From Maritimibacter sp. (lineage in GTDB: Bacteria; Pseudomonadota; Alphaproteobacteria; Rhodobacterales; Rhodobacteraceae): 40,000 bases of DNA. The stretch is from NCBI GenBank assembly GCA_002695005.1, contig NZNT01000026.1, positions 381,588-421,587 of the forward strand, read 5' to 3'. The notes beneath the pieces were generated by a model, which saw only the letters and a list, made by a program, of their open reading frames with translations, searched no databases and had not been told where the DNA came from. Every line of letters starts with the position of its first letter. Position 1 is the stretch's first letter. Positions 6,894 to 20,511 of the stretch are shown here, piece by piece. A program made the position numbers and the translations under genes.

Positions 6894-7496
6894 TCAGGTC
6901 CAGACATAGCCATAGGCGAGGTCGAAGTCCTCCGCACGAATGGCGCGGTTGCCGATCTGCCCGCCGCGCAGCCAGAGCCGACCATGGACTTGCGTCCCGT
7001 CAAAGCGCGTCTCGGGCGGCAAGGCCACATGGTCGAGCCAGAGGCCGCCCATGCACTCCCCCTCCGACAGCAGCGCCGCGCCTTCGACGCGCGCGCCCTC
7101 GAACGAGAGGTTGCCGTTGCAGGTGACACCCGGCATCGTGACGCCTTGTGCGAACCGGGCACGGTCGAAGCGGGCGATGCCGCGGAAATCCGTGGCCGAA
7201 AAGTCGGCCTGACCGTCGAACTGCGCCTCCTCGAACCGGGCGTCCGAACCGAAGGTCGCGCCGGAGAAACGGGCGTCGCCCGCAAACCGTGCGCCCGTGA
7301 ACCAGCTCAGGCCAATGAACTGCGCACCGGAGGCGTCCACACCGTCCGGGAAATGCGCCCCCGAGAAATCGACGCCGGACAGGACAAAGCCGGACAGATC
7401 GAGCGGCCCGTCGCAGGTGATCCCCGCAAAGGACGTATGCGCCCCGTGCCGATACGGACGGGAGAGCGCCGCGCGAATCTCGTCCGGCGCGGTCAT
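6894..7496 (-). CDS. Pentapeptide-repeat protein (200 aa); last gene of the large operon
   Basis: There are consecutive 5-residue repeats with a central F/L (…ARFAG DARFS GATFG SDARF EEAQF DGQAD FSATD FRGIA RFDRA RFAQG…). Its ATG overlaps the flavodoxin stop (ATGA at 7493-7496). Confidence 0.85.
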   Translation of the reverse strand: MTAPDEIRAALSRPYRHGAHTSFAGITCDGPLDLSGFVLSGVDFSGAHFPDGVDASGAQFIGLSWFTGARFAGDARFSGATFGSDARFEEAQFDGQADFSATDFRGIARFDRARFAQGVTMPGVTCNGNLSFEGARVEGAALLSEGECMGGLWLDHVALPPETRFDGTQVHGRLWLRGGQIGNRAIRAEDFDLAYGYVWT

Positions 7497-7960
7497 GCGG
7501 CGGCGCCAAGCCGCTCTTCGGCCTGCGAGATGATCTCTTCGGCCCAGGGAAATGCGAGGTCTTCGGCCATCTCCGGGCCGGAGGCGTCATGCGCCACGCG
7601 TTCGCCGATCTGCGTCGCGCCGTGGGCCAGCATCAACTCGGCGAGCCGCTTGGGGCCGTGATTGAACGTTTCGTCGTATTCGCTGTCGCCCATCCCGAAG
7701 ATCGCGAAATGAATGGCCGAAAGATCGGGCTTGGCCGCCTCCATCGCCTCGGCAAAGGGCTGGGCCGACGCAGGCAGTTCGCCGTCGCCATAGGTCGAGC
7801 AAACCAGCAGGTAGAGATGTTCGGGCACGAGCGACATCGGGTCCACGTCCGACAGGTTCTGGCAGGAGACGTCGTGATCGCCCTCAAGCTCGGACTGGAT
7901 ATCCTCGGCGAGCATCTCGGCATTGCCGGTTTCGGTCCCGTAAAGAATGCTGATGTTCAT
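7493..7960 (-). CDS. Flavodoxin (155 aa)
   Basis: From the ATG at 7960 the translation reads MNISILYGTETGNAEMLAEDI…LLVCSTYGDGELP…FAIFGMGDSEY. This includes the flavodoxin FMN-binding signature (T/S)xTGN. The 37-aa Arg-rich extension in the track ORF was rejected. There is an ATGA overlap with the upstream reductase. Confidence 0.85.
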   Translation of the reverse strand: MNISILYGTETGNAEMLAEDIQSELEGDHDVSCQNLSDVDPMSLVPEHLYLLVCSTYGDGELPASAQPFAEAMEAAKPDLSAIHFAIFGMGDSEYDETFNHGPKRLAELMLAHGATQIGERVAHDASGPEMAEDLAFPWAEEIISQAEERLGAAA

Positions 7961-9192
7961 CCCGTGGTCACTCCTTTGCTTGCGAGGCGAGTCATTTCTT
8001 CGCGTGTCGTGATCTTGGCGCGGCACCGCCCTTCGGGCAGCGCCTCGGTTTCGGCGGCGTCGATGCGACACCAGCCGTCGTAATCGACGAGCCCTGTGCG
8101 GCCCTCGAAGATCGCGCGTCCTGGCTTTGCAGGGTCTGCGGTCAGATCGTCAAGGATGTGCGTCGCGAGCGCCTGCGCGTCGGCACGGTTTTCCGGGATC
8201 GTGCCGCGTGGACCGCGCCGGAACCAGCCGGTCGCGTAGAGACCCGGCGCGAGCGCCCCTGCCCCGGCGTCGGTCGCGCTTTCCAGAAGGGCGTCGCGCG
8301 GCAGGTCCGGGTCGGCGTCGAAGCCGATCGCCGTCAGAACCGATGTGCAGGGGATCGTTTCGTCGCCCGCGTCGCTCGTAAATCGAACCGCGCGAACCTG
8401 CCCTTGTGAGCCGATTACCTCTGCAGGCGTCAGGCCGAACCGGAAGGTCACGTTGCGCGCACCGCTGCCATGACCGGCGATGGAGGCGAGCGCGTCCAGC
8501 GTCTTCACCGCGTCGGGTTCGTCGCTCGCGCCTGTGCCCACGACGTCGATGCTGACACCGCCCAGCTTGGCGAGTTCCTTGATCATGACGGGATCGAATT
8601 TCGCCGCCGCCGCGGGTGAGCGACCGGTGATCGTGAGGGACTCGATCCCGGCTCCGGCCAGCCAGTCGGTCGGACCGGCGCCGAGGTCGGACCCGGCGAG
8701 TTCATCGGGGTCTTTCGCCAGAAGCCGCAGCAGGTCGATGGCGACGTTGCCGTTACCGACGATGAGGGGATGCGCCCCGAGCTCAGGGAGCGTTTCTGCA
8801 TCTGGGTGATCGTAGAGTGCGCGGGTCAGCCGCCCGGCGCCGAACACACCCGCGAGGTCGTCGCCGGGAATTCCGAGCGGCCGGTCCACCGGCATTCCCG
8901 TAGCGAGGACCACCGCGTCATAGGCTGCGCGCAAGTCTTCGAGCGCGACGTCATCACCGAGCCGCAGACACCCGAAGAACCGCGCACCCTGCCGTTCGAA
9001 CACGCGGGCGAACTGGCGTGTGACTGCCTTGGTTCCCTGGTGGTCCGCCGCGACTCCGTAACGTACGAGTCCGTAGGGCACCGGCAAAGCGTCGATCAGG
9101 TCGACCTCCAGGTCCGGCGCCGCCTTGAGCAGCGACTGGGCCAGATAGCAGCCGGACGGACCTGCGCCCACGATGGCGATCTTTCCGCTCAT
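7957..9192 (-). CDS. FprA/adrenodoxin-reductase-type NADPH:ferredoxin(flavodoxin) oxidoreductase
   Basis: From the ATG at 9192 the translation reads MSGKIAIVGAGPSGCYLAQSLLK…LPVPYGLVRYGVAADHQGTK…. A second dinucleotide fold follows (LIVGNGNVAIDLLRLL). This matches the FprA/AdR family pattern. There are ATGA overlaps at both ends. Confidence 0.75.
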   Translation of the reverse strand: MSGKIAIVGAGPSGCYLAQSLLKAAPDLEVDLIDALPVPYGLVRYGVAADHQGTKAVTRQFARVFERQGARFFGCLRLGDDVALEDLRAAYDAVVLATGMPVDRPLGIPGDDLAGVFGAGRLTRALYDHPDAETLPELGAHPLIVGNGNVAIDLLRLLAKDPDELAGSDLGAGPTDWLAGAGIESLTITGRSPAAAAKFDPVMIKELAKLGGVSIDVVGTGASDEPDAVKTLDALASIAGHGSGARNVTFRFGLTPAEVIGSQGQVRAVRFTSDAGDETIPCTSVLTAIGFDADPDLPRDALLESATDAGAGALAPGLYATGWFRRGPRGTIPENRADAQALATHILDDLTADPAKPGRAIFEGRTGLVDYDGWCRIDAAETEALPEGRCRAKITTREEMTRLASKGVTTG

Positions 9193-10697
9193 GGCGTCAC
9201 CGCAGCCCCCGCCCACGGGATCGGGGCGCCCGTGAGGTCGGTGTAAAAGCCTTTCTGACGCATGTAAGCGCGCAGGCCTTGTCGGCCCTTTTCACGCCCG
9301 ATGCCGCTCGCGCCGTCCCCGCCAAAAGGCGTCGACACCGAGAACTGCTTGTAGGTGTTGTGCCAGACGGTCCCGGCCTGAATGGCTTGCCCGACGCGCC
9401 AGGCGCGGGGAAAGTCACGGGTCCAGATGCCGCAGGCGAGGCCGTAGTCGTTGTCGTTGGACTGCGCGATGACGTCCGCCTCGTCGTCGAAGGGCAGAAC
9501 GGCGAGCACCGGGCCGAACACTTCTTCCCGGCAGAGCCGCGCAGTGTTGGGGAGGCTCGAAAGGATCGTGGGCAAGTAATAGCTGCCCCCGTCATACTCT
9601 GGCCCCTCTGGCGCGCGGCCACCGGTCAGAAGCTCGGCCCCGTCCGCGAGCGCCTGTGCGACATGCGCCGCGACCTCGTCCCGATGATCCATGTGGATGA
9701 GCGGGGCGACCTGCGTGGCCGGATCGAAGGGGTGGCCCACCACGAGCCGTTCGGTCGCTGCGACCAGCCGGGAGACGAAGCTGTCGAAGATAGAGCGTTC
9801 GACGAAGAGCCGCGAGCCGGCGATGCAGCTTTGGCCGGTCGAGGAGAAGATGCCGTAGAGCACACCGGCGATCGCGGTGTCCATGTCGGCATCGGCGAAA
9901 ACGATGGTCGGGGATTTGCCGCCGAGTTCGAGACTCACCGGCATGAGTTTCTGCGCCGCCTTCACGGCGAGCGCACGGCCCGTCTCGGTGCCGCCGGTGA
10001 AGCTCACACGCGCGATGTCCGGATGTTCTACGAGCAGATTACCGATCTCACGCCCAGATCCTGGAAGAACCGAGAACAGACCCTTGGGGCAGCCGGCCGC
10101 GTCCACGATCCGGGCCAGTTCCAGTGCGGTCAGCGGCGACCAGGAGGCGGGCTTGAGGATGACGGCGTTCCCGGCCGCAAGGGCCGGGGCGACCTTCTGC
10201 GCGTCCGAGGCGATGGGAGAGTTCCAGGGCGTGATCGCGGCGACCACACCCATCGGCTCGTAGACCGACAGGGTCATCGCAGGTCCGCGCCGGGTGGTAA
10301 GCTCCTCGTCCATCGTCTCCAACACCGCGCCGAAGTAGCGAAACGTCCCGGCGGCGGACGCGGCGAGCGCTCCCGTTTCGGCCAATGTCTTGCCGGTATC
10401 GCGCGACTGGATGCGCGAGATGCGTTCGGCATTGGCTTCGATCCCGTCCGCGATGCGATAGAGGAGCCGCGCGCGTTCATGTGGCTTGAGCGCGCGCCAG
10501 GCGGGATCGGCCTGTGCGGCCTTGGCCTTGGCGATGGCCTCTTCCCCGTCAGCGGCACTCGCGCCGCGAAACACCCGGTTCACCCGACCGTCCGCCGGAA
10601 AGATCGAAGTGATCTCGGCCCCGCGCCCATCGCGCCATTCGCCTGCGAGAAAGAGCTTGCCCTCGGGAAGCTCGGCGTTCACGTCCATATCCTTCAT
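9189..10697 (-). CDS. NAD(P)-dependent aldehyde dehydrogenase family protein
   Basis: ALDH hallmarks are present: …FTGGTETGR…, the ELGGKSP glutamate motif and the catalytic Cys context GQSCIAGSR. Length is 502 aa. Confidence 0.9.
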   Translation of the reverse strand: MKDMDVNAELPEGKLFLAGEWRDGRGAEITSIFPADGRVNRVFRGASAADGEEAIAKAKAAQADPAWRALKPHERARLLYRIADGIEANAERISRIQSRDTGKTLAETGALAASAAGTFRYFGAVLETMDEELTTRRGPAMTLSVYEPMGVVAAITPWNSPIASDAQKVAPALAAGNAVILKPASWSPLTALELARIVDAAGCPKGLFSVLPGSGREIGNLLVEHPDIARVSFTGGTETGRALAVKAAQKLMPVSLELGGKSPTIVFADADMDTAIAGVLYGIFSSTGQSCIAGSRLFVERSIFDSFVSRLVAATERLVVGHPFDPATQVAPLIHMDHRDEVAAHVAQALADGAELLTGGRAPEGPEYDGGSYYLPTILSSLPNTARLCREEVFGPVLAVLPFDDEADVIAQSNDNDYGLACGIWTRDFPRAWRVGQAIQAGTVWHNTYKQFSVSTPFGGDGASGIGREKGRQGLRAYMRQKGFYTDLTGAPIPWAGAAVTP

Positions 10698-11509
10698 CAG
10701 ATCACCATCGGTCCGATATGGTTTCGGATTTCGCGCAGAACGGAGTAGATCGTCGCCACGCTCGTCTTCGCATTGCCGTTCGACGGCAGGTTCTCGATCT
10801 CCACGCGCACCTTGGCGGCGGGGGAGACGACCTCGTAGCTGTGGACATTGCCGGGGGCTGCGGGGTCGGCCACGAGTTCCACCCGGGTCTTGTCGAGGCC
10901 GGGGCCTGCCAGCGCCAGAGTCGCGGCCACGTTGGCGTTCTTGGGAAACTGAGCCGCAGCCTCGCGGGCCGTGCCGGTAAAGAACACGGCCGCTGACTCA
11001 AGTGTATCAAGGTCGAGCGCTTCGGCCGCCGGCGATCCGGCCCAGGCTTTCGGCGGCTTCGTCCCGCGATAGGTCAGCGTGACCTCGCCCGAGGCGGACA
11101 GGGCCGATACGATGTCGATTCCGCCGACAGCACCTGCGGGCAGGATGATCCGCGCCCCGCCCGCGCGCGCGGCCGTCTCCAGCCTTGCCGCAAGGTCGGT
11201 GTCCGACAGCGCCCCGACCGAGACGACGACCACATCGAATCCGGCCTCGAGGCAAGGCCCCACATGCTCGGCCACACCGGCATGTCCTGCAGCCTCGACG
11301 ATAAGGTCCGGGCGGGCCGCGATCAGGTCGGCGGTCTCCTCCACGATCTCGGCCTTCGGTGTCATGGCGGCGATCTCGTCCTGCGCGCGGTCGCATTGCC
11401 CCGCGCGCACCAGAAGCGTGATACGGGTCACGTCCGGCGCATCCGGCGCGTCGAGGAACCCGAGAAGCGTCTTGACGATATTGCCGCACCCGATGAGACC
11501 GAGATGCAT
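10697..11509 (-). CDS. Aspartate dehydrogenase (NadX)-like domain protein
   Basis: The N-terminus has a Rossmann fold (MHLGLIGCGNIV). The C-terminal half reads …FPKNANVAATLALAG…ADPAAPGNVHSYEV…NLPSNGNAKTS…, as in the NadX family. Confidence 0.7.
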   Translation of the reverse strand: MHLGLIGCGNIVKTLLGFLDAPDAPDVTRITLLVRAGQCDRAQDEIAAMTPKAEIVEETADLIAARPDLIVEAAGHAGVAEHVGPCLEAGFDVVVVSVGALSDTDLAARLETAARAGGARIILPAGAVGGIDIVSALSASGEVTLTYRGTKPPKAWAGSPAAEALDLDTLESAAVFFTGTAREAAAQFPKNANVAATLALAGPGLDKTRVELVADPAAPGNVHSYEVVSPAAKVRVEIENLPSNGNAKTSVATIYSVLREIRNHIGPMVI

Positions 11510-11512
11510 GGA

Positions 11513-13198
11513 TCACACCTCCTTGGTCTGGGCGGCACCCGCCGGCGGTCCGGCAAAGGCTTCGGCGAAGGGTCCGATAGCGTTCATGTCGATCTCGATG
11601 AGCGACGGGCCGGACCCCGCGAGCGCGGCGTCGAGCACGCCCGCGAATGCTTCGACGTCATCGCAGCGCGTGTGCGGCATCCCGATGGAGGCGCAGAAGG
11701 CGTCGAACTCCGGCACGGCGATGGCCGAGTAGTGGCGGCGGCTGTCATACTGCGCGTCCTGGATGTTCTGGATCACGCCATAGGCCCTGTCGTTCATCAG
11801 GATGTAGACCAGCGGCGCATTCTCATCGACCGCAGTGATCATCTCGGCGAGACCGAGCATCGTGCCGCCGTCGCCCACGAGCGTCACCGCCTTCTGGTCA
11901 GGCGAACAGGCCAGCGCCGCGCCGATCCCCATGGCGACCCCCTGCCCGATCCCGCCGCCAAGGGCGTGGACCCCCTGCTCAGGCCGGGCAAGGCGGACGT
12001 AGCGGTTTCCGAAGGTGGAGTTCGAGATCGTCACGTCGCGCACCCAGGCGTGACCGCCTGCCGCCACAGCCTCGCTGATCGCGTCGGCGACCACGCGGTA
12101 TTGGCCGAGTTGAGAGCGCATGCGCCCCTCGGCCCCGGCCCGCGCGCGGGCGATGTCGAACCCGAGGTTCGGGTCGGCGTCGAGCTTGGCCGGCAGCTTG
12201 TCGAGCAAGCGCGCCAGCGTGTCCTGCGCGCCGCCGTGAATGAACATGTCGACGGCGTAGTTGCGCCCGCCCTGCGCGGCATCCGCGTCGATCTGGACCA
12301 GGGGGCGCGGCAGCGGCATCATGTTGTTGCGGGTCTCGTTGCCGCGCAGGCGCGAGCCGACCACGACCATCAGGTCGCAGGTTTCATACAGCGCGACCGA
12401 CTCCGGTCCCATGTTGAACGCGCCGAGGTTGGCCGAGGCCTCCTCGCTGACCGTTGCGCGGCCATTGGTCGAGGTGACGATACCGACGCCCCGGTTCATC
12501 AGTTCGGTCGCTTCGCGGGTCGCCTCACGCGCGCCACCGCCCAGCCACAGGAGGGGGCGTTTCGCGTTCACGATGGCGTCGGCAAGCGCGTCGATCGCGG
12601 GGTCCGGCGCGCGCGGCGCCTGGGCTTCAGGTGCGAAGATCGTGGATTGCTCCACCGCCATGTGGCGCTGCACATCGACGGGGATCTCAAGGCTCACGGG
12701 GCCTGACGGTGCCGACAAAGCGGACGACACGGCGGCGGTCAGCGTGCCGACGGCTCCGTTCGCGTCCCACATCCGGTAGACCGCCTTCGACACGCCGCGC
12801 AGCATCTCCGGCTGGCGCGGCACGTCGTGGATCGCCGCGCGGTCGCGGTCGGCATAGGCAAGGTCCACCTGGCTCGTGATATGGAGCACCCGGCTTCCGG
12901 CCGTGAGCGCCTCCGCCTGCGCCCCGGCCGCGTTGCCCGCCGCCGTGCCGGTCGAGGTGATGCACACGCCAAGACCGCCCGACACACGAGCATAGGCATC
13001 GGCCATGTTCATCGCCCCTGCCTCGCCGCGCGCGGGCACGAACCGGATCCGGCCCTGACGCGCGACGGCGTCGAGGATGGGCATGTTGTGGATCGAGATC
13101 ACCCCGAACATGGTGGTGACACCAACCTCCGCGAGATACCGGGCAATGTAGTCGCCGACGGTTTCGACGTCCTGGATGGTTTCGTGTTTCATGCCCAT
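11513..13198 (-). CDS. Thiamine-pyrophosphate-dependent enzyme (acetolactate synthase / benzoylformate decarboxylase superfamily)
   Basis: There is an N-terminal TPP-pyrimidine domain (…FGVISIHNMPILDA…ARGEAGAMNMADAYARVSG…) and a C-terminal TPP motif (GDGGTMLGLAEMITAVDENAPLVYILMNDRAYG). The start may instead be the second ATG at 13192, given GAGGAG spacing. Confidence 0.85.
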   Translation of the reverse strand: MGMKHETIQDVETVGDYIARYLAEVGVTTMFGVISIHNMPILDAVARQGRIRFVPARGEAGAMNMADAYARVSGGLGVCITSTGTAAGNAAGAQAEALTAGSRVLHITSQVDLAYADRDRAAIHDVPRQPEMLRGVSKAVYRMWDANGAVGTLTAAVSSALSAPSGPVSLEIPVDVQRHMAVEQSTIFAPEAQAPRAPDPAIDALADAIVNAKRPLLWLGGGAREATREATELMNRGVGIVTSTNGRATVSEEASANLGAFNMGPESVALYETCDLMVVVGSRLRGNETRNNMMPLPRPLVQIDADAAQGGRNYAVDMFIHGGAQDTLARLLDKLPAKLDADPNLGFDIARARAGAEGRMRSQLGQYRVVADAISEAVAAGGHAWVRDVTISNSTFGNRYVRLARPEQGVHALGGGIGQGVAMGIGAALACSPDQKAVTLVGDGGTMLGLAEMITAVDENAPLVYILMNDRAYGVIQNIQDAQYDSRRHYSAIAVPEFDAFCASIGMPHTRCDDVEAFAGVLDAALAGSGPSLIEIDMNAIGPFAEAFAGPPAGAAQTKEV

Positions 13199-15761: not shown

Positions 15762-16498
15762 GTGAACACGAAGCCGTTGTTGACCGGCAGCACCTGCCCG
15801 GTGAGGGTCAGCGCGCTTTCGGTCAGCAGGAAACATGCCACCTCGGACACGTCGCCCGTGTCCTGCGGCCCCGGCACGGCGCGGCCGTCCTGGTAGAACC
15901 TGTGGCGGTGCTCCGGCACATATTCCGTGCTTTCGGTCGTCAGGATGCCGGGCGCGATGGCGGTGACGCCCACCCGATCCGGCCCGAGTTCGCGCGCGAG
16001 CGATCGGGTCATTGAAATAACCGCGCCCTTGGACGCGACATAGGACAATAGGTTCTGGGCCCCCCATAGCGCCGTGTCCGAGGCGACGTTGACGACCCGA
16101 CCGGACCCCGACGCCTTGAGCAGCGGCGCGGCGGCACGGGTCATCAGCCAGGTGCCGCGCACGTTGACGCGCTGGACAAGATCCCAGGTGTCGATCTCGA
16201 TGGCGTCGAACGGGATGCCGCCGATACCCGTCGCGATGGCCCCGTTGTTGACCAGCCCGTGCAGTTTCCCGCCCGTGCGCTCGGCCACCCCGGCGGCCAG
16301 CGCCTCGATCGAGGCCGGATCACCAAGGTCGACGGGCAGGAAGTCTGCGCCCAGCGCCTCGGCCGTCGCGCCTCCCGTTTCCTCGGCAATGTCCGCGAGG
16401 ATCAGCGATGCGCCCTGGCCGGCGAGGGTCTTGGCGATTTCGGCGCCAAGACCGCGGGCCGCGCCGGTCACGAGGATATGTCGTCCGTCGAGCGTCAT
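15758..16498 (-). CDS. Classical SDR oxidoreductase (dihydrodiol/3-oxoacyl reductase-like)
   Basis: Motifs VTGAARGLG and NNGA are present, with catalytic S…YVASK. There is a 1-nt overlap (TAATG) with the Rieske gene stop. Confidence 0.88.
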   Translation of the reverse strand: MTLDGRHILVTGAARGLGAEIAKTLAGQGASLILADIAEETGGATAEALGADFLPVDLGDPASIEALAAGVAERTGGKLHGLVNNGAIATGIGGIPFDAIEIDTWDLVQRVNVRGTWLMTRAAAPLLKASGSGRVVNVASDTALWGAQNLLSYVASKGAVISMTRSLARELGPDRVGVTAIAPGILTTESTEYVPEHRHRFYQDGRAVPGPQDTGDVSEVACFLLTESALTLTGQVLPVNNGFVFT

Positions 16499-17541
16499 TA
16501 TTCCGCCGCTACCTCGGCAGCCTTCAGCTCCGCCTCGATCTGCGCCTTGGCGGCGCGGGTCAGGACCTGCCGGATACGGCTTACACCAAGGTCATGCTGG
16601 TAGAGCATCTCGCGCTTGCGGGCGTCGTCCGGCATGCCTTCGAGCATGACGCGGTCCTGCTCCAGCACGTTCCAGTGGTTCTCCTCAAGCTGGGCGCGAT
16701 AGAGGAAACGCCAGCTTTCGCGCGCGGTCCCTTCCACCTGGCGCATCCGCCAGAAGAAGACCTTGGTCGTGTGGGCGTCCATCGGGGTGGTGTAACCGAT
16801 GATGCGGAACACGCCGCCCGGGCCGCCTGCGGGTGGATAGGGAATGTCGAGGAAACAGAACATCGTGCCTTGGTGAACCTCGAACTCGGTCCAGTCGAAA
16901 TTCTCACCCGTCTGGCCGACCCGCTCGATCCGGAACCCGCTGTCGGTCTTGTCGAGCTTCATGAGGTCCTGTTTGGAACCAAATGCCAGCGTGAAGCTCT
17001 CGGAATGGAGGTAACAGCCGTGCATCGGGTCGGCGAGGTTGTCGAGCGCGTAGCGGTAGTTTGCCTCCCAGACGGACGTGCAGAGAAAACCAGTCCATTC
17101 GTCGCTGACCAGCTCCTTGGGCAGAACCAGTTCCGGAGCCTCCGGCTGATCGACCGAGGGGACATAGACGAACACGGCGTCGTTGCTCTCGGTCACCTCA
17201 TAAGAGGTGAGCGCCTTGCGGCCCTCAAGCGCGCAATCGGGCATCGCGGGGACCCTGACCACGACACCGTCGCCGTCGACGATCACGCCGTGGTAGCGGC
17301 ATCCGATGTGGCCTTCGTGGATCTCGCCATATGAAAGCGGCGCGCCACGGTGCGGGCAGAAGTCCTCGATGCAGCGGATCTTGCCGGACCCATCGCGCCA
17401 GAGGACGACCTTCTCGCCCAGAAGCCGGGTGCCGTAGGGCTTGGAGGTCTTCACCTCCACCGACTTCGCCACCGGATACCACTGGCCGCGCAGGCCCTCG
17501 TTCACCCGGTTCTCGATCAGGGTTTTCTTGTCGACTGTCAT
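16498..17541 (-). CDS. Rieske [2Fe-2S] non-haem-iron oxygenase, alpha-only type (VanA/TsaM/phthalate-family-like), 347 aa
   Basis: The Rieske motif is CPHRGAPLSYGEIHEGHIGCRYHG (CxH…CxxH). The mononuclear-iron region is NLADPMHGCYLH (HxxxxH). No beta-subunit gene is adjacent. Confidence 0.88.
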   Translation of the reverse strand: MTVDKKTLIENRVNEGLRGQWYPVAKSVEVKTSKPYGTRLLGEKVVLWRDGSGKIRCIEDFCPHRGAPLSYGEIHEGHIGCRYHGVIVDGDGVVVRVPAMPDCALEGRKALTSYEVTESNDAVFVYVPSVDQPEAPELVLPKELVSDEWTGFLCTSVWEANYRYALDNLADPMHGCYLHSESFTLAFGSKQDLMKLDKTDSGFRIERVGQTGENFDWTEFEVHQGTMFCFLDIPYPPAGGPGGVFRIIGYTTPMDAHTTKVFFWRMRQVEGTARESWRFLYRAQLEENHWNVLEQDRVMLEGMPDDARKREMLYQHDLGVSRIRQVLTRAAKAQIEAELKAAEVAAE

Positions 17542-17569: not shown

Positions 17570-18427
17570 TTACTGGTGCGCCTTGGGCAGGTAATGCAGA
17601 ACCCGCTCTTCGATCCGCTCCAGCACGACGTAAAGGAGGAAGCCGATCACGGTCAGCAGGATGATGGCGTTGAAGACCATGGCCGCGTTGGCCTGCCCTC
17701 CGCCGTAGGAAATCAGGTAGCCGAGCCCGGTGTTTCCGCCGACCAGCTCGCCCACGGTCACGCCGATGACGGCGAGGGTCGAGGCGATGCGCAGGCCTGC
17801 CATGAGGTTGGGCACGGTCGACGGCATCTCGACCTTCCAGAAGATGCCCAGCCGGGTCAGGTTGTAGGCCCGTGCGAGGTTCACGAGGTCCCGGTCGACG
17901 GTGCGCATTGCCTGCAACACGTTGACGAGGACCGGGAAGAACACGATCAGCACGGTAACCAGCAGTTTCGGCATCGAGTTGTAGCCGAACCACATGATGA
18001 AAAGCGGGGCGAAGGCGACCTTCGGCGCGATTTGCAGCGCGAGGATGTAGGGCGACAGCACCTTTTCCCAGAACTTGGACATGCCAAGCAGATAGCCCAT
18101 GACGGCGCCCAGAAGGCTGCCGATGAGAAAGCCCAGCACGGTATAGAGCGCGGTGGACAGAATGTGACCCAGAAGACCCTCGTTCGCCCACATCCGCTGC
18201 AATTCGGCAAGCGAATCCGACAGCGTCGGGATGATGAACCGCGGGACGTCCAGGGCGGTCGGCAGGACCTCCCACGCGACGAGAACGGCGATCAGGATCG
18301 CGACGCTCGTCAGCTTGATGCCATGCTTGCGGATCATCGATGTGTTCCTCGTCGCGGGTTTCGGGCTCGGGGCGGGGGTGTCCGGGGCCGCTTGGGCCCC
18401 GGTTCCGTGGTGGGTCGCGTCGGTCAT
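17570..18427 (-). CDS. ABC transporter permease, NitT/TauT (SsuC-like) family
   Basis: It is a BPD-type permease (…ALQIAPKVAFAPLFIMWFGYNSMPKLLV…). I chose the start at 18427, which overlaps the SBP stop (ATGA). An alternative ATG lies at 18337 (MIRKHGIKL…). The rest of the 423-aa track ORF overlaps the SBP gene. Confidence 0.82.
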   Translation of the reverse strand: MTDATHHGTGAQAAPDTPAPSPKPATRNTSMIRKHGIKLTSVAILIAVLVAWEVLPTALDVPRFIIPTLSDSLAELQRMWANEGLLGHILSTALYTVLGFLIGSLLGAVMGYLLGMSKFWEKVLSPYILALQIAPKVAFAPLFIMWFGYNSMPKLLVTVLIVFFPVLVNVLQAMRTVDRDLVNLARAYNLTRLGIFWKVEMPSTVPNLMAGLRIASTLAVIGVTVGELVGGNTGLGYLISYGGGQANAAMVFNAIILLTVIGFLLYVVLERIEERVLHYLPKAHQ

Positions 18428-19398
18428 TGCACGAATTCGTTGGTGTAGAGGTCTTCGACCGGCACGGCGGTCTGGACGATCCCGCTTTCGACATAGAACT
18501 TCTGCACGGCCGCGATCCGCTCGGGGTCGAAGCTGCCCAGCGGCTGGTCCTCGCCCTCGGGATAGATCAGGTTCGAATAGGCGCGCATGATCGCTTCGAT
18601 CTGGGCTTCCTTGCCCTCGTGCTGCGGCACGAACCCGACATATTCCTTGGCGGCCTGAGCCGGGTCGGACGTGATGTCGCCGATGGCCTTGAGGACAGCG
18701 CCCACGAAGCCGGAGACGATCTCGGGCCGCTCCGCAATGGTTTCGTCCGACGCGATGATTGCCTGCGCCATGGCCGGGAAGATCGTGTCGACGGGAACCT
18801 GGTCCATCTCGACACCGGCGCCTTCGATGGCGGCGATCCATTCCGGCACACCCGACATGCCGTCGAGTTTGCCGGCGATGTTGAGCTGGATGATGCCGCC
18901 CGGTCCGACCGCCTGAATATCGACGTCGTCCTTGGACAGGCCGACCGAGGCGAGCACGCCGAGCAGGTTGTAATAGGTGGTATCCTGGAACGCGAGCACG
19001 CCGATCGACTTGCCGGCGAAATCCTCCGGACCGGTGATCCCGCTCTCGGTACGCCAGGCAAGCTGGGTCAGGCCGCGACCGCCCAGCAGGGCGACCCCGC
19101 GGATTTCGAGCCCGTTGGCACGCACGATGATCGGCGTGTCGCCGATGCCGCCGCCGAGATCGGCATTGCCGAGCGCGACCTGCGTCGCCACGTCCGCGCC
19201 GCCCTTGCCGACCTGGAAGGTCACGTCGAGATCGGCCTCGGCGAAGTATCCTTTGCCAAGAGCGAGCTGGAACGGCGCGAAGGCCGGGAGGAAATCAGGC
19301 GCGGGGAAGAGGTAGGTCACCTGTTCCGCCGCGAAGGCCGCCGTTGCCGACACCGCGATCGTCGCGGCCGCCACTGTATTCTGAAGCAGTTTTTTCAT
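18424..19398 (-). CDS. ABC transporter substrate-binding protein, NMT1/THI5-like (NitT/TauT family)
   Basis: It has a signal peptide (MKKLLQNTVAAATIAVSATAAFA). The body is typical of NMT1/SsuA-like binding proteins. It is flanked by the cognate permease and ATPase genes. Confidence 0.8.
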   Translation of the reverse strand: MKKLLQNTVAAATIAVSATAAFAAEQVTYLFPAPDFLPAFAPFQLALGKGYFAEADLDVTFQVGKGGADVATQVALGNADLGGGIGDTPIIVRANGLEIRGVALLGGRGLTQLAWRTESGITGPEDFAGKSIGVLAFQDTTYYNLLGVLASVGLSKDDVDIQAVGPGGIIQLNIAGKLDGMSGVPEWIAAIEGAGVEMDQVPVDTIFPAMAQAIIASDETIAERPEIVSGFVGAVLKAIGDITSDPAQAAKEYVGFVPQHEGKEAQIEAIMRAYSNLIYPEGEDQPLGSFDPERIAAVQKFYVESGIVQTAVPVEDLYTNEFVQ

Positions 19399-19414
19399 TT
19401 GTTGAGTCTCCCTG

Positions 19415-20185
19415 TCAGGCTGCTTTTTCTTCGAGTTTCAGATGCTTAAAGAGCTGCGCGGCGTATTCGCCGACTTCCGGCAGAACCCGGCGCCTGATCG
19501 GTTGATCCCGATGCGGCAGGTCCACCTTGATTTCCGCGATCACCTGACCCGGACGCTCGCTGAGGACGAGAATGCGATCCGACATGAGGACGGCCTCGGA
19601 AAGGTCGTGCGTGATCAGGAGCGTGGTCTTGCCCGCGTCCTTGATCGTCTTGGCAAAGGAGTTCTGGAGAAGGAGTTTGGTCTGGGCGTCGAGCGCCGAG
19701 AACGGCTCGTCCAGCAGGATGATTTCCGGGTCGATCGAGAGCGTGCGCGCGAGGGCCGCACGCTGCCGCATTCCGCCGGAAAGCTGGTAGGGAAAGTGGT
19801 TCTCGAAGCCGGACAACTGGCAATGGTCCAGCTCCTTCATCGCACGGGCGCGCCGGTCAGCCTTGGGCACGCCGCGGGCTTCGAGCCCGAATTCGATGTT
19901 CGCGATGATGTTGCGCCACGGCAGGAGCAGGTCTTTCTGGAGCATGAACCCGACGTGCGAGTTGGGTCCGGTCACCGGCACGTTAGAAACGAGCACCTCG
20001 CCCGACGTGGGCTGATACAGGCCCGCGGTCATCGACAGGATGGTCGACTTGCCGCAGCCCGAGGGGCCGACGACCGATACGAACTCGCCTTCCTCCACGC
20101 GGAAGCTGACATCATCGACGGCGAGGAGTTCCCCGTCGCCTTGCGTCGCGAAAGATTTGGAGACATTGCGGAACTCAAGCGCCAT
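19415..20185 (-). CDS. ABC transporter ATP-binding protein (NitT/TauT family)
   Basis: From the ATG at 20185 the translation reads MALEFRNVSKSF…. Walker A GPSGCGKST, signature LSGGMRQRAALAR and Walker B ILLDEP are present. Confidence 0.9.
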   Translation of the reverse strand: MALEFRNVSKSFATQGDGELLAVDDVSFRVEEGEFVSVVGPSGCGKSTILSMTAGLYQPTSGEVLVSNVPVTGPNSHVGFMLQKDLLLPWRNIIANIEFGLEARGVPKADRRARAMKELDHCQLSGFENHFPYQLSGGMRQRAALARTLSIDPEIILLDEPFSALDAQTKLLLQNSFAKTIKDAGKTTLLITHDLSEAVLMSDRILVLSERPGQVIAEIKVDLPHRDQPIRRRVLPEVGEYAAQLFKHLKLEEKAA

Positions 20186-20477
20186 AACCGTGCTCCTGAT
20201 AGGCGGCTTCGAGATCGGCATTGATGGCGGCGAGCTCTTTGGCGAGGCTCTCTTCGGTCCAGTCGGTCCCGCCTGAGATCGGCGCAACCACGCCCCGCTC
20301 CGTGAGCGCCTTGGCGACAAGCGCGAAGTCATGCGTGCCGTCGGAATAGATATCCATGAGAGCGGCTGCGAGCGCCGTTTCCGCGTCTGTCAGGTCACGC
20401 CCCCGGCTCTGGTGCGCCAGTGCCGGACGGCCGGTATCCCGCGCCCGCTCTGAAAGTCTGTCCTTGAATGCGTCCAT
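20175..20477 (-). CDS. Small (~100 aa) hypothetical protein, possibly a recombinase-like HTH domain protein; first gene of the operon
   Basis: The ORF reads MDAFKDRLSERARDTGRPALAHQSRGRDLTDAE…HDFALVAKALTERGVVAPISGGTDWTEESLAKELAAIN…. The ATG at 20477 has GGGGG 8 nt upstream, and GTG at 20486 is an alternative start. Its 3' end overlaps the ATPase start by 11 nt. The family assignment is from memory of similar small proteins and is weak. Confidence 0.5.
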   Translation of the reverse strand: MDAFKDRLSERARDTGRPALAHQSRGRDLTDAETALAAALMDIYSDGTHDFALVAKALTERGVVAPISGGTDWTEESLAKELAAINADLEAAYQEHGYGA

Positions 20478-20511
20478 TCCTGGCACCCCCTGTCGTTTGC
20501 TCTAACGGATA

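Follow-up and report, generated by a model that had tools for sequence, protein, structure and literature searches.

A conserved, putative catabolic operon of Maritimibacter sp. and its tentative link to kynurenate degradation

The ORF list and a junction script placed 15 collinear genes on the minus strand between positions 6894 and 20486 of the window, the 40,000-nt stretch of Maritimibacter sp. DNA that was analysed. The question raised by this locus is whether these genes act as one unit and which compound they degrade. All family calls of the initial annotation were reproduced by profile search (Pfam and NCBIfam; the FprA call also by a PDB match). The features, with strand and supporting matches, are as follows.

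6066..6887, +, IclR-family regulator, PcaR/PobR-like (Pfam HTH_IclR, IclR_C; NCBIfam PcaR/PcaU/PobR subfamily, 146 bits)
6894..7496, -, pentapeptide-repeat protein (Pfam Pentapeptide_3, 87 bits)
7493..7960, -, short-chain (MioC-like) flavodoxin (Pfam Flavodoxin_1, 97 bits)
7957..9192, -, FprA/adrenodoxin-reductase-type NADPH:flavodoxin (ferredoxin) reductase (PDB M. tuberculosis FprA 1LQT, E = 1e-50)
9189..10697, -, NAD(P)-dependent aldehyde dehydrogenase, ALDH (Pfam Aldedh, 531 bits)
10697..11509, -, L-aspartate dehydrogenase, NadX/AspDH, PRK13303 (Pfam Asp_DH_C, NAD_binding_3; NCBIfam equivalog NF009827, 246 bits, cut-off 226)
11513..13198, -, thiamine-diphosphate (TPP) enzyme (NCBIfam PRK07064, 750 bits, cut-off 495)
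13203..13991, -, atypical SDR, SDR2 (NCBIfam PRK07062, 376 bits, cut-off 266)
13991..14920, -, two-domain VOC-type (type I) extradiol dioxygenase (Pfam Glyoxalase)
14949..15761, -, alpha/beta-fold hydrolase, GHSLG (NCBIfam PcaD, 111 bits, cut-off 256; BphD, 34 bits, cut-off 462)
15758..16498, -, classical SDR, SDR1 (Pfam adh_short; TGxxxGxG and YxxxK motifs)
16498..17541, -, alpha-only Rieske non-haem-iron oxygenase, no beta subunit (Pfam Rieske, 83 bits; VanA_C, 47 bits)
17570..18427, -, ABC importer permease (Pfam BPD_transp_1); 4-nt overlap with the solute-binding protein gene
18424..19398, -, periplasmic NMT1/THI5-like solute-binding protein (Pfam NMT1, 105 bits)
19415..20185, -, ABC importer ATPase, NitT/TauT type (Pfam ABC_tran); overlaps the upstream gene by 11 nt
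20175..20477, -, HTH_62 (recombinase-like helix-turn-helix) protein, ~100 aa (Pfam PF20552, 50.5 bits)
20511..20572, -, operon promoter and operator (promoter scan and orthologous intergenic conservation)
20715..21869, +, class A FAD-dependent aromatic hydroxylase (Pfam FAD_binding_3)
21982..22932, -, bicupin (Pfam Cupin_2)
22990..23799, +, second IclR-family regulator (Pfam, NCBIfam)

Operon architecture and control

The junctions were recovered exactly as first described, with nine start/stop overlaps (11, 4, 1, 4, 1, 1, 4, 4 and 4 nt) and five gaps that do not exceed 28 nt (16, 28, 28, 4 and 3 nt), and Shine-Dalgarno-like sequences precede the non-overlapping starts. The first gene was retained, but its start was moved from GTG at 20486 to ATG at 20477 (MDAFKD) by conservation in 11 orthologous loci. 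The operon promoter was the sole minus-strand promoter-like site within 6000-21500, and the scan of that range detected no internal promoter or terminator signal inside the operon. The -35 element TTGACT is located at 20572-20567 and a conserved operator, TTTGAACA-n3-TGyTCA-n4-TGAACA, at approximately 20540-20511. Both TTGAC and the operator half-sites were invariant or near-invariant across 11 orthologous intergenic regions from 11 genera, and the operator palindrome occurred once, at the operon promoter. A TPP riboswitch was looked for at the operon and none was found. The junctions, the one promoter/operator and the lack of internal signals support the initial reading of a single translationally coupled catabolic operon; by sequence and comparison, the 15 genes form a single coupled unit of transcription under one conserved promoter and operator.

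The IclR gene at 6066..6887 is convergent with the 3' end of the operon and likely encodes its repressor or activator; an ortholog was beside or within the cluster in about 60 of the 86 loci of our comparative set, which includes a Rieske-containing subset (n=59) and a Rieske-less subset (n=10). The limits 6894-20486 were too narrow for the functional unit, because the flanking FAD monooxygenase, bicupin and two IclR genes accompany the operon in other genomes. The FAD monooxygenase gene is divergent from the operon, with a regulatory region common to both; orthologs were found in 42/86 loci, and those of P. chlororaphis and Pseudorhodoferax are encoded inside the operon itself. Its top NCBIfam models were 3-hydroxybenzoate 6-monooxygenase (252 bits), urate hydroxylase HpxO and salicylate hydroxylase, all under cut-off. 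The second IclR gene is divergent from the bicupin gene across a 57-bp spacer with its own palindrome (TGTGTC...GACACA), and this pair adjoins the cluster in seven loci (L001, L002, L008, L018, L036, L049 and L056). The N-terminal barrel of the bicupin carries the only metal site of this protein (HxH..E..H), and the AF2 model of the bicupin (pLDDT 78) gave non-specific Foldseek matches to oxalate decarboxylase, quercetin dioxygenase and salicylate dioxygenase. A 180-aa monocupin encoded inside the operon in other lineages aligns with both bicupin halves, and the two forms are nearly mutually exclusive (one form in 60 loci, both in 1); the bicupin is predicted to be its equivalent.

Conservation and modules

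The search for conserved neighbourhoods proposed in the initial annotation recovered the same 15-gene order at 17 or more Rhodobacterales and Rhizobiales loci, covering about a dozen genera with 43-96% protein identity, far more than chance would produce. Plasmids of Pseudosulfitobacter and of Paracoccus carry this order, as do Maritimibacter, Nitratireductor, Roseibium and others. In Cupriavidus, Ralstonia, Pseudomonas (P. putida, P. chlororaphis) and Aromatoleum the same enzymes are encoded in a different arrangement, and they are also present in Pseudorhodoferax; in these clusters a VanB-type reductase replaces FprA and flavodoxin.

These comparisons show that the system is modular. The core module comprises the hydrolase, extradiol dioxygenase, atypical SDR, TPP enzyme, AspDH, ALDH, cupin and FAD monooxygenase, and the entry module comprises HTH_62, the Rieske oxygenase, SDR1 and a reductase, which is FprA plus flavodoxin in the present operon and VanB-type in others. 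Certain loci carry, instead of the entry module, a sulfatase together with a second FAD monooxygenase and a TRAP transporter. The gene for HTH_62, a protein without cysteines, was found in 42/59 Rieske-containing loci and 0/10 Rieske-less loci, and in Pseudomonas, Aromatoleum and Cupriavidus it immediately precedes the Rieske gene. FprA and flavodoxin were always paired (28 loci each), were missing from Rieske-less loci, and interchange with the VanB/PDR-type reductase (26/59 vs 12/59 Rieske loci); SDR1 likewise co-occurs with the Rieske gene across loci. The pentapeptide-repeat gene, present in 46/86 loci and in 1/10 Rieske-less loci, accompanies the Rieske module in Alphaproteobacteria and adjoins HTH_62-Rieske in four loci (L023, L029, L030 and L056). 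Since certain loci have no AspDH, ALDH or even VOC gene inside 10 kb, these enzymes would be dispensable or encoded elsewhere.

Enzymes, transport and substrate class

The Rieske translation contains CPH...CRYH and D-x2-H-x4-H motifs. Its nearest solved structures were a putative phthalate 4,5-dioxygenase alpha subunit and carbazole CarAa. These matches cover residues ~17-184, from the Rieske domain into the first part of the catalytic domain, and one phthalate-family match runs to residue 282. More than 2,300 homologs were found, every one generically named, and no close characterised relatives of the Rieske, VOC or SDR1 proteins were found in NCBIfam or PDB. We propose that NADPH supplies the electrons for this oxygenase, with the FprA-type reductase as their first carrier and flavodoxin as the direct donor to the Rieske cluster.

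The VOC protein has the same length as its annotated orthologs (309 aa), and its top NCBIfam models, HpaD and catechol 2,3-dioxygenase (~79 bits), were under cut-off. The hydrolase matched PcaD and HsaD alike in PDB (E of about 1e-13) and is equally distant from enol-lactonases and meta-cleavage-product hydrolases. The bph-type core seen earlier in this block is an analogy only, with the BphC equivalog at 53 bits (cut-off 366), BphD at 34 bits (cut-off 462) and an alpha-only oxygenase. SDR2 has Ser-Thr-Arg where Ser-Tyr-Lys is usual; it matched PDB 3LF1/3LF2 with 285 bits in an alignment that keeps the ...TS(S/A)AR... centre, and is the ortholog of P. aeruginosa NADPH-binding Q9HYA2, whose crystal structure (3LF1/3LF2) is without the catalytic Tyr/Lys. 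For the TPP enzyme, the closest named NCBIfam model was 5-guanidino-2-oxopentanoate decarboxylase, a 2-oxo-acid decarboxylase feeding an ALDH; PDB gave BbmA/CsmA first, then acetolactate synthases and benzoylformate decarboxylase, and a genome scan confirmed at least 587 pattern-matched relatives. We propose that it is a non-oxidative 2-oxo-acid decarboxylase. In PDB, AspDH matched the structures of this enzyme from T. maritima and A. fulgidus. ALDH has the catalytic motifs ELGGKSP and GQSCIAG in its translation, and its top NCBIfam models (BADH, HpaE) were under cut-off.

The NitT/TauT family of the importer was confirmed. The top ATPase models, SaoA and TauB, were both below cut-off, the solute-binding protein scored 61 bits against taurine/sulfonate equivalogs (NCBIfam cut-off 304), and its PDB relatives were remote ones only. 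Transporter type varies among homologous clusters (ABC, TRAP, TTT, MFS), so this importer is poorly informative on chemistry. The TRAP, TTT and MFS replacements, the sole PDB relative of the TRAP solute-binding protein (4MNC) and the PcaR/PobR-like regulators point to a carboxylate rather than a sulfonate substrate. That the substrate is polar or hetero-aromatic and not a hydrocarbon, as first suggested, is supported. Nitrogen in its skeleton is indicated by the AspDH, which passes its equivalog cut-off, by RidA-family imine/enamine deaminase genes that at least 8 loci have in the cluster or next to it (in P. chlororaphis one lies between the Rieske and reductase genes), and by an IorAB-like molybdenum hydroxylase that, with a 77%-identical IclR paralog, adjoins the cluster in Cupriavidus.

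Kynurenate as the candidate substrate

No named pathway for the gene set or synteny was found in NCBIfam, Pfam, PDB or the open literature, and the two family-specific models in NCBIfam release 20 are still generically named. The initial statement that the genes map to no characterised pathway therefore holds for the synteny, but on paper they could be mapped to the gene-orphan kynurenate "quinoline" pathway. This bacterial route of kynurenic acid degradation was described 60 years ago and is still without assigned genes. In Pseudomonas extracts kynurenate is converted to the 7,8-dihydrodiol and 7,8-dihydroxykynurenate, followed by 8,8a-extradiol cleavage, NADH reduction of the side chain and oxidative decarboxylation, and the route ends in glutamate, alanine, acetate and CO2. 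Delftia acidovorans is a known kynurenate user. So is A. baumannii (PMC10732645), and the primary papers on Pseudomonas kynurenate breakdown are cited in PMC11354673 and PMC5610271.

Applied to the operon, the Rieske oxygenase would cis-dihydroxylate the ring of kynurenate to give the 7,8-dihydrodiol, and SDR1, as cis-dihydrodiol dehydrogenase, would re-aromatise this to the catechol 7,8-dihydroxykynurenate. The VOC dioxygenase would then cleave the carbocyclic ring beside the diol, yielding 4,6-dihydroxypicolinate with a 3-carboxy-3-oxopropenyl side chain. SDR2 would reduce the double bond of this 2-oxo-3-enoate side chain with NADPH, the TPP enzyme would decarboxylate the 2-oxo acid to the aldehyde, and ALDH would oxidise the aldehyde to 5-(2-carboxyethyl)-4,6-dihydroxypicolinate. 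The FAD monooxygenase, cupin and hydrolase, whose three roles are guesses, might hydroxylate and open the pyridone ring. This would release 2-oxoglutarate as a C5 unit and, as a C4 unit that keeps the nitrogen, iminoaspartate or aminofumarate, which AspDH would interconvert with aspartate, or with oxaloacetate and ammonia. In Rieske-less variants, the sulfatase and second FAD monooxygenase may arrive at the same catechol by starting from a hydroxylated analogue, xanthurenate, or from its sulfate ester.

Degradation of kynurenate (and xanthurenate) is our best model, by a match of enzyme classes only, because all required classes are present and each conserved gene is assignable; the side-chain logic of reduction, decarboxylation and oxidation is favoured by the relationship of SDR2 to Q9HYA2 and, for the TPP enzyme, by its closest named relative, which feeds an ALDH. 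Counting against the model are the loci without AspDH, ALDH or VOC inside 10 kb, the distance of the Rieske, VOC and SDR1 proteins from any characterised relative, and the flavodoxin-fed Rieske step, since we know of no Rieske oxygenase shown to take electrons from flavodoxin. The hydrolase also argues against it. Its gene adjoins the VOC gene in most VOC-carrying loci (in several with an IclR gene intervening; the two are separated in the Cupriavidus/Ralstonia/Pseudomonas arrangement), which suggests that the hydrolase may act directly on the ring-fission product, whereas the classical kynurenate scheme has no such step.

We therefore read the operon, tentatively and with a probability of roughly 0.38, as an IclR-controlled system that would import and degrade an aromatic carboxylate, most probably a tryptophan-derived quinoline-2-carboxylate such as kynurenate. 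The block is a member of a widespread cluster family that spans hundreds of bacterial species; Pseudomonas aeruginosa is one of them, and its cluster contains the gene for Q9HYA2.

Structure and control region of the operon

A six-frame ORF list and a junction script reproduced the 15 collinear minus-strand genes between 6894 and 20486 that had been described in the initial annotation. Nine junctions are start/stop overlaps (11, 4, 1, 4, 1, 1, 4, 4 and 4 nt) and the other five are gaps of 16, 28, 28, 4 and 3 nt, in agreement with the earlier count of nine overlaps and the earlier limit of 28 nt. Shine-Dalgarno-like sequences precede the non-overlapping starts. The operon and the flanking genes treated with it are as follows.

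6066-6887, IclR regulator gene
6894-20486, minus strand, the 15-gene operon, HTH_62 gene first and pentapeptide-repeat gene last
20715-21869, FAD monooxygenase gene, divergent from the operon
21982-22932, bicupin gene
22990-23799, second IclR gene

The ORF of the first gene opens at GTG 20486, and the start conserved among orthologs is ATG 20477 (MDAFKD...), with a GGGGG/GGGAGG Shine-Dalgarno sequence upstream of it. A consensus scan of 6000-21500 revealed a single promoter-like site on the minus strand, TTGACT-17-AAAAAT at 20572-20544, just 5' of the first gene, and no minus-strand terminator-like site was found by consensus scan within the 15-gene block. No riboswitch, TPP riboswitch included, or other RNA element was found across the whole window with Rfam.

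The divergent intergenic region (20478-20714) was aligned across 11 orthologous loci from 11 genera. TTGAC, the -35 element of the predicted promoter, was invariant in all 11 regions, and a predicted operator, TTTGAACA-n3-TGyTCA-n4-TGAACA (window about 20540-20511), was conserved in the 11 loci 3' of this element. The operator palindrome occurs once, at the operon promoter, and the alignment showed a second GTTCA-rich element on the FAD-monooxygenase side (20655-20690). The intergenic region is AT-rich, and its GTTCA/TGAAC half-site arrays, one set of which overlaps the operon promoter, are conserved across the 11 genera. The arrays at 20511-20540 and 20655-20690 are probably IclR operators. 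Taken with the gene couplings, the conserved promoter and operator and the single palindrome support one regulated transcript covering all 15 genes. Co-regulation of the divergent FAD monooxygenase with the operon is suggested, and the product of the IclR gene at 6066-6887, which is PcaR/PobR-like, is probably the regulator of both.

The 57-bp spacer between the bicupin and second IclR genes (22933-22989) carries an inverted repeat of its own, TGTGTC-n12-GACACA, unlike the operon operator. A dienelactone hydrolase family gene (4495-5151, plus strand; Pfam DLH, 135 bits) is found a short way upstream of the convergent IclR gene and was not a recurrent neighbor in other loci. An unrelated block at 23836-29282 contains a gene for a membrane sensor-like protein followed by three plus-strand genes that, judged by eye, encode a family-8 glycosidase, an HlyD-like protein and a family-2 (cellulose-synthase-like) glycosyltransferase. 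Between 28000 and 38000 the G+C content falls from about 0.65 to 0.57-0.62, with a strongly negative AT skew at 34-36 kb; this region holds a TetR gene, a fumarylacetoacetase-like ORF and a TRAP/TAXI-like transporter, and may be a separately acquired segment.

Enzyme families and a proposed kynurenate model

Each enzyme class required by the classical kynurenate pathway was found in one co-regulated unit, namely a Rieske oxygenase with its electron chain, a classical SDR (SDR1), a VOC dioxygenase, an NADPH-type atypical SDR (SDR2), a ThDP enzyme (TPP) and an ALDH. Judged by these enzyme classes, the probability that the substrate is of the kynurenate type is roughly one in three. Profile searches with Pfam and NCBIfam returned every family named in the initial annotation, as listed here for the minus-strand genes of 6894-20486.

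HTH_62 protein
ABC importer: ATPase (ABC_tran), substrate-binding protein or SBP (NMT1), permease (BPD_transp_1)
alpha-only Rieske oxygenase (Rieske + VanA_C)
classical SDR (SDR1)
alpha/beta hydrolase (GHSLG)
two-domain VOC dioxygenase
atypical SDR (SDR2)
ThDP enzyme (TPP)
NadX/AspDH-type dehydrogenase (AspDH)
ALDH
FprA/adrenodoxin-reductase-type flavoprotein (PDB 1LQT, E = 1e-50)
flavodoxin
pentapeptide-repeat protein

The Rieske oxygenase scored above both Pfam gathering scores (Rieske 83 bits, VanA_C 47 bits), and its translation carries the motifs CPH...CRYH and DPMHGCYLH. With a Rieske [2Fe-2S] motif and a VanA_C domain with a 2-His-1-carboxylate site, it is of the alpha-only (phthalate-family/VanA-like) type. 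Its closest solved structures were a putative phthalate 4,5-dioxygenase alpha subunit and carbazole CarAa, the matches running from the Rieske domain into the first part of the catalytic domain (residues ~17-184), with one phthalate-family match reaching residue 282. No Rieske beta subunit or ferredoxin was found in the operon, and no single-protein PDR/VanB-type FMN/[2Fe-2S] reductase in the window, where an FprA-like reductase and a flavodoxin take its place.

SDR2 matched NF005468 (PRK07062) with 376 bits against a cut-off of 266 and is the ortholog of P. aeruginosa Q9HYA2 (PDB 3LF1/3LF2, 285 bits). Within the SDR Rossmann fold, Ser-Thr-Arg replaces Ser-Tyr-Lys, as seen in the alignment to 3LF1 (NSLLA...TSSAR vs NSLLA...TSAAR). 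Q9HYA2 (3LF2) reportedly binds NADPH and is without the Tyr/Lys of alcohol dehydrogenases. The TPP enzyme belongs to the PRK07064 family (750 bits, NCBIfam cut-off 495); its nearest named NCBIfam model is 2-ketoarginine decarboxylase, and its PDB matches include BbmA/CsmA, the nearest solved relatives, and benzoylformate decarboxylases. No publication on BbmA/CsmA was traced in the literature. Since the AspDH gene product scored 246 bits against the cut-off of 226 for the equivalog NF009827, in addition to Pfam matches to PF01958 (99.6 bits) and PF03447 (76.8 bits), it is predicted to be an L-aspartate dehydrogenase (NadX/AspDH). The P. aeruginosa ortholog is reportedly aspartate-specific.

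The equivalogs of the bph, hsa, hpa and pca pathways (BphC, BphD, HsaC, HsaD, HpaD and PcaD) were all far below their curated NCBIfam cut-offs. The VOC protein has the two-domain VOC fold and matched the BphC model TIGR03213 with 52.6 bits (cut-off 366) in its C-terminal domain only. For the hydrolase, scores were 34 bits for TIGR03343 (BphD; cut-off 462), 59 for HsaD (cut-off 400) and, for the best NCBIfam model, PcaD enol-lactonase, 111 (cut-off 256); as the PDB matches to PcaD and HsaD were equally weak, this protein is as distant from C-C hydrolases as from enol-lactonases. Relatives of the FAD monooxygenase are HpxO, NicC-type and salicylate hydroxylases. An AlphaFold model of the bicupin gave generic Foldseek matches (TM about 0.55) that do not single out one function, and its predicted fold resembles quercetin dioxygenase, salicylate dioxygenase and oxalate decarboxylase. 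Among the importer components, the SBP was NMT1 at Pfam family level only, and the scores for the Tau/Ssu equivalogs were below cut-off throughout (bits/cut-off: TauA 61/304, SsuA family 59/164, SsuC 112/347, TauB 215/357). When this SBP and the TRAP DctP protein of variant loci were searched against the PDB for liganded relatives, remote matches only were obtained; for the TRAP protein the sole relative was 4MNC, a structure that reportedly holds benzoylformate. No desulfonation or sulfite-handling genes were found in the operon with Pfam and NCBIfam, and no hydratase, aldolase or acetaldehyde dehydrogenase genes in the cluster.

In the proposed pathway, NADPH would reduce the alpha-only Rieske oxygenase through FprA and flavodoxin, the oxygenase would form a cis-dihydrodiol, SDR1 would re-aromatise it to a catechol, and the VOC enzyme would cut the ring adjacent to the diol. 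These three assignments follow from the established enzymology of their families. Extradiol products all end in a 2-hydroxy-dienoate, which is a 2-oxo-enoate. Because this terminus is the only 2-oxo acid for a ThDP decarboxylase, SDR2, TPP and ALDH are placed there, and the side chain would be reduced by SDR2, decarboxylated by TPP and oxidized by ALDH. Reduction, decarboxylation and oxidation are said to have followed in that order in the Pseudomonas extracts on kynurenate that Hayaishi, Taniuchi, Horibata and Dagley studied in 1961-63. The classical route, as given in KEGG map00380 and the work of Taniuchi & Hayaishi 1963, Horibata et al. 1961 and Dagley & Johnson 1963, reportedly leads from kynurenate to the 7,8-dihydrodiol (EC 1.14.99.2), 7,8-dihydroxykynurenate (EC 1.3.1.18), 5-(3-carboxy-3-oxopropenyl)-4,6-dihydroxypicolinate (EC 1.13.11.10), the oxopropyl compound and 5-(2-carboxyethyl)-4,6-dihydroxypicolinate, and the end products in Pseudomonas extracts were reportedly glutamate, alanine, acetate and CO2.

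Opening of the pyridone at N1-C6 and C4-C5 would release a C5 unit (2-oxoglutarate) and N1-C2(COOH)-C3-C4, the iminoaspartate skeleton, which would explain the conserved AspDH and RidA genes and the old end products; glutamate would come from 2-oxoglutarate, and alanine and acetate from oxaloacetate or aspartate. RidA proteins are imine/enamine deaminases, as in the 2-aminophenol pathway. Candidates for ring opening are the FAD monooxygenase, the metal-binding cupin and the hydrolase, although the last might act instead on the first ring-fission product, opening its pyrone or enol-lactone form. In loci without the Rieske gene, a sulfatase and a second monooxygenase could start from xanthurenate (8-hydroxykynurenate) or the corresponding sulfate ester and arrive at the same catechol. 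A molybdenum hydroxylase in Cupriavidus could convert quinaldate to kynurenate, for which quinaldate 4-oxidoreductase is a precedent. It is tentatively possible, then, that the operon and its Pseudomonas, Cupriavidus and Rhodobacterales relatives encode the gene-orphan kynurenate/xanthurenate pathway, with a Ser-Thr-Arg 2-oxo-3-enoate reductase, pyridone fission to 2-oxoglutarate and iminoaspartate, and an FprA/flavodoxin-driven Rieske oxygenase without an iron-sulfur carrier. That the pentapeptide-repeat protein is a Qnr-like gyrase shield against a 4-quinolone substrate is pure speculation.

The operon was compared with known systems. In the classical kynurenate pathway, the ring dioxygenase (NAD(P)H), dihydrodiol dehydrogenase, Fe(II) extradiol dioxygenase, pyridine-nucleotide-dependent ene-reduction and 2-oxo-acid decarboxylation and oxidation are all of classes encoded in the operon, and the AspDH would fit an N-containing C4 end product; the published scheme, however, has no roles for a hydrolase, a cupin or an FAD monooxygenase. 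Taniuchi & Hayaishi 1963 and Horibata et al. 1961 are cited in PMC5610271 and PMC11354673. No assignment of genes to EC 1.14.99.2, 1.3.1.18 and 1.13.11.10 was found in the literature.

The hca/mhp and bph pathways likewise bring a Rieske oxygenase and an SDR, or an FAD monooxygenase, to one catechol for type-I/II extradiol cleavage, with an alpha/beta hydrolase beside. They differ in that the operon's oxygenase is alpha-only with VanA_C, in that the BphC, BphD and HsaC/D equivalogs are far below cut-off, and in that hydratase, aldolase and acetaldehyde dehydrogenase are replaced by a reductase-like SDR, TPP, ALDH and AspDH. The likeness of the middle block to a bph-type meta-cleavage core, proposed at first, therefore holds for the two-domain VOC fold and otherwise as an analogy only, since the oxygenase is alpha-only and the BphC and BphD models are far below cut-off. 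A bph-type upper pathway (BphA-D) was rejected: there is no alpha3beta3 Rieske oxygenase with ferredoxin, and the proteins are outside BphC and BphD/HsaD.

The only publication found that combines Rieske, extradiol and thiamine chemistry concerns the 25-gene Lum operon of Nocardioides simplex, with the P450 LumU, the xanthine-oxidase-type LumJ, the alpha/beta Rieske oxygenase LumCD with ferredoxin, and a split TPP enzyme, LumK/L, for which the heterocycle itself is the substrate of decarboxylation (PMC12746152). There too an N-heterobicyclic/tricyclic carboxylate is degraded by a Rieske oxygenase and an extradiol dioxygenase, with a ThDP-dependent decarboxylation and a pyrone-type ring-fission product that is hydrolysed, but the Lum operon is without AspDH, atypical SDR and an ALDH-coupled step (PMC12746152). 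A lumichrome/riboflavin pathway was rejected, as the LumU, LumJ, LumCD and LumK/L architectures, as described in PMC12746152, are absent from the window. Phthalate-family (class IA-like) Rieske oxygenases are alpha-only as in the operon, and orthologous clusters use a DmmA_N/Fer2 PDR-type reductase, whereas the FprA-type flavoprotein and flavodoxin of the operon leave no iron-sulfur carrier between NADPH and the Rieske center. We know of no description of an FprA-type reductase and flavodoxin as partners of a Rieske oxygenase.

Modules and spread across genomes

In the comparison set of 86 homologous loci, the core consisted of hydrolase, VOC, SDR2, TPP, AspDH and ALDH, usually accompanied by IclR, a class A FAD monooxygenase and a cupin. 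The cupin was either a 180-aa monocupin within the operon or a 316-aa bicupin nearby (window 21982-22932). The monocupin aligns to either half of the bicupin, and as the two forms are almost mutually exclusive they were treated as equivalent. The entry module comprises HTH_62, Rieske and SDR1, to which the pentapeptide protein is added in Alphaproteobacteria. Near the Rieske gene (59 loci), FprA and flavodoxin were found in 26, a VanB/PDR-type reductase in 12 and neither in 23, and in none of the 59 did both reductase types serve one Rieske oxygenase. FprA, flavodoxin and HTH_62 were present in none of the 10 full-length Rieske-less loci. Because FprA and flavodoxin are swapped like for like with the VanB/PDR-type reductase, they probably feed the Rieske center, and an electron route NADPH -> FprA -> flavodoxin -> Rieske is proposed from this gene distribution.

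Six of the 10 Rieske-less full-length loci have a TRAP transporter, six a second, distantly related FAD monooxygenase and three a PF00884 sulfatase; in all, a sulfatase was found in nine variant loci, suggesting a sulfated phenolic analogue of the substrate. TRAP, PF00884 sulfatase and second FAD monooxygenase genes occur together in the homologous loci L033, L038, L040, L044, L045, L054, L067 and L068 (e.g. L068:14411-20211). In the sulfatase-type variants, which include contigs labelled SUP05 or gammaproteobacterial SAGs, the Rieske module is replaced in some and accompanied in others. Transport across the family is by NMT1-type ABC, TRAP, TTT or MFS (plus porin) systems, the last three usually being carboxylate carriers. 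RidA/YjgF-family genes lie in or beside the cluster in at least eight loci (e.g. L084:6647-7081), and the P. chlororaphis RidA gene (L088:18515-18961) is located between the Rieske gene and its reductase. On a Cupriavidus pauculus plasmid (L003:1-4423), an IorAB-like two-subunit molybdenum hydroxylase, a TTT binding protein and an IclR paralog directly adjoin the cluster, the paralog being 77% identical to the internal IclR of that cluster; this hints at N-heterocycle hydroxylation feeding the pathway. No Pfam match was obtained for four proteins that recur or are encoded within the cluster, L077:2577-2924 (115 aa), whose family recurs in 12 loci, L061:2458-2838 (126 aa), L088:16916-17233 (105 aa) and L085:18254-19483 (409 aa). 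No kynurenine-pathway gene (kynA, kynB or an aminotransferase) recurred among the frequent neighbors in the 86 loci or over the remainder of the window.

A scan of species-representative genomes with the TPP-enzyme alignment confirmed at least 587 relatives of this enzyme. Among the best 80 of these at least 587, which were inspected, identical gene order was found in at least 17 loci from about a dozen Rhodobacterales and Rhizobiales genera. The closest locus among the matches listed was that of Maritimibacter harenae DP07, whose proteins are 69-96% identical when compared one gene at a time. Megablast against plasmids matched the whole block to a plasmid of 247 kb in Pseudosulfitobacter sp. 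DSM 107133 (76% nucleotide identity); in Paracoccus sp. MA, whose plasmid measures 672 kb, the match covered a central ~3.5 kb, or 25% of the query. By RefSeq annotation both plasmids carry the same 15 genes as the window, in the same order. The cluster is plasmid-borne in Pseudosulfitobacter (L001), Paracoccus (L002) and, on a 334-kb conjugative plasmid, Cupriavidus pauculus (L003), and the L001 copy has an IS6 transposase at a distance of about 2 kb; plasmid location and the nearby transposase fit horizontal spread.

Rearranged clusters with the same enzymes were found in Cupriavidus and Ralstonia via short DNA matches. The Q9HYA2 search retrieved loci in P. putida, P. chlororaphis, Aromatoleum and Pseudorhodoferax with the order ABC importer, SDR1, monocupin, hydrolase, IclR, SDR2, TPP, AspDH, ALDH, VOC, (FAD monooxygenase), HTH_62, Rieske, (RidA), VanB/PDR-type reductase. 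The P. putida and P. chlororaphis clusters share with the operon an NMT1-type ABC importer, SDR1, cupin, hydrolase, IclR, SDR2, TPP, AspDH, ALDH, VOC, HTH_62 and the alpha-only Rieske oxygenase, but differ in gene order, with IclR inside, in a one-protein VanB/PDR-type reductase instead of FprA and flavodoxin, in the lack of a pentapeptide protein, in a monocupin rather than a bicupin and in the occasional presence of RidA. The PAO1 counterpart we take to be PA3514-PA3504 and downstream genes (ALDH, AspDH, TPP 'decarboxylase', SDR, IclR, hydrolase, cupin, SDR and ABC importer), with PA3505 presumably the characterized L-aspartate dehydrogenase and PA3507 Q9HYA2. To our knowledge, two members of PA3504-PA3514 have been studied, each in isolation (AspDH enzymology and the Q9HYA2 structure). 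On this comparative evidence, the cluster is conserved, mobile and modular, and not confined to this genome.

The view that the gene set maps to no characterized pathway stood, since a search of NCBIfam and the open literature for the same synteny with a named pathway found none. In NCBIfam release 20 (June 2026) both family-specific models are still generically named, the names of all 240 Rieske and SDR2 homologs listed are generic, and no functional assignment for PA3504-PA3510, Q9HYA2, or kynurenate, xanthurenate and quinoline-pathway genes was found in the literature.

Alternative readings and significance

The strongest rival to a kynurenate-type substrate is another aromatic carboxylate, monocyclic or otherwise, degraded with the same architecture, a possible but doubtful reading. 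The hydrolase would then cut the ring-fission product like a meta-cleavage-product hydrolase, SDR2, TPP and ALDH would form a novel lower route from a 2-hydroxypentadienoate-type 2-oxo-enoate to a short fatty acid instead of hydratase and aldolase, and AspDH would serve an aspartate-like second product or nitrogen assimilation. This agrees with the adjacency of hydrolase and VOC genes in most VOC-containing loci, with a hydrolase no closer to PcaD than to HsaD/BphD, with a cluster free of hydratase and aldolase genes and with two entry modules meeting at one catechol, as in E. coli hca/mhp; the enzymes are also without close characterized relatives, which leaves the substrate open. It gives, however, no coherent role to the cupin, the FAD monooxygenase (core in many loci), RidA and AspDH, the meta-cleavage-product hydrolase equivalogs are far below cut-off, and a phenylalanine-type substrate, the sole direct source of aspartate, is ill-suited to TRAP/TTT/MFS/NitT transporters and PobR-like regulators. 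It is improbable that SDR2-TPP-AspDH-ALDH act first, as an Ehrlich- or mandelate-type side-chain module taking an aryl amino or hydroxy acid through the 2-oxo acid to a shorter aromatic acid for Rieske, SDR1, VOC and hydrolase. The order of dehydrogenase, TPP decarboxylase and ALDH does mirror the 2-ketoarginine (AruI/KauB) and benzoylformate routes, these are also the functions of the nearest named TPP model and of some PDB matches, and 4MNC, the sole PDB relative of the TRAP SBP, is reportedly benzoylformate-bound. But AspDH scores above the aspartate dehydrogenase equivalog cut-off, with a P. aeruginosa ortholog reportedly specific for aspartate, SDR2 is without the Tyr/Lys needed in ordinary alcohol oxidation, and the block stays with VOC and hydrolase in Rieske-less loci, which ties it to ring cleavage rather than to an upstream funnel.

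Following the lead of the initial annotation, the importer family could mark the substrate as an aromatic sulfonate, a methoxylated aromatic or a pyrimidine/thiamine-type compound, and we regard this as very unlikely. An NMT1/THI5-like SBP, an ATPase and permease resembling Tau/Ssu/Sao components, a VanA-like Rieske catalytic domain as in O-demethylases and TsaM, and the sulfatase of nine variant loci would suit it, although sulfatases act on sulfate esters and not on sulfonates. Uptake of a sulfonate, a pyrimidine-type compound or a thiamine precursor was abandoned as a reading because the taurine and sulfonate equivalogs are all far below cut-off, no TPP riboswitch or other Rfam element was found in the window, and carboxylate-type TRAP, TTT and MFS systems replace the importer in homologous clusters; desulfonation and sulfite-handling genes are also missing from the operon, and the dedicated diol dehydrogenase adjoining the Rieske gene indicates dihydroxylation, not demethylation. 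Chance juxtaposition of independent transporter, oxygenase, TPP/AspDH/ALDH and redox sets with no common pathway is extremely unlikely. Elsewhere an IclR gene does split the cluster, modules are shuffled or partly missing, and transporter and reductase types vary; yet the swaps are like for like, reductase for reductase and transporter for transporter, the same enzyme families, although rearranged, remain linked in Alpha-, Beta- and Gammaproteobacteria, and the operon has nine start/stop overlaps, no internal signals and one conserved promoter and operator.

The component families and the logic of uptake, dihydroxylation and extradiol cleavage were already known. New are the conserved combination of reductase, ThDP decarboxylase, ALDH and AspDH, an SDR with a Ser-Thr-Arg center, the supply of electrons through a flavodoxin, and the HTH_62 and pentapeptide proteins that accompany the oxygenase. 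It is also new that a cluster found in P. aeruginosa and in hundreds of further species has no pathway assigned to it. Its members include conserved genes of many marine Rhodobacterales/Rhizobiales, of Cupriavidus and of strains of P. aeruginosa, P. putida and P. chlororaphis, and a pathway assignment would explain two isolated studies, that of AspDH used for aspartate production and that of the Q9HYA2 crystal structure. Whatever the substrate, replacement of the hydratase/aldolase lower pathway by a reductase, a ThDP decarboxylase and an ALDH is new, as is the one-for-one exchange of a [2Fe-2S] reductase for FprA and flavodoxin, possibly an adaptation that spares iron. Should the substrate prove to be kynurenate or xanthurenate, a gap of 60 years in tryptophan catabolism would be closed, EC 1.14.99.2, 1.3.1.18 and 1.13.11.10 would gain sequences, 'aspartate dehydrogenase' genes outside NAD synthesis would have a physiological reason, and markers would be at hand to trace how microbes in hosts and in the sea remove neuroactive and immunoactive kynurenines.
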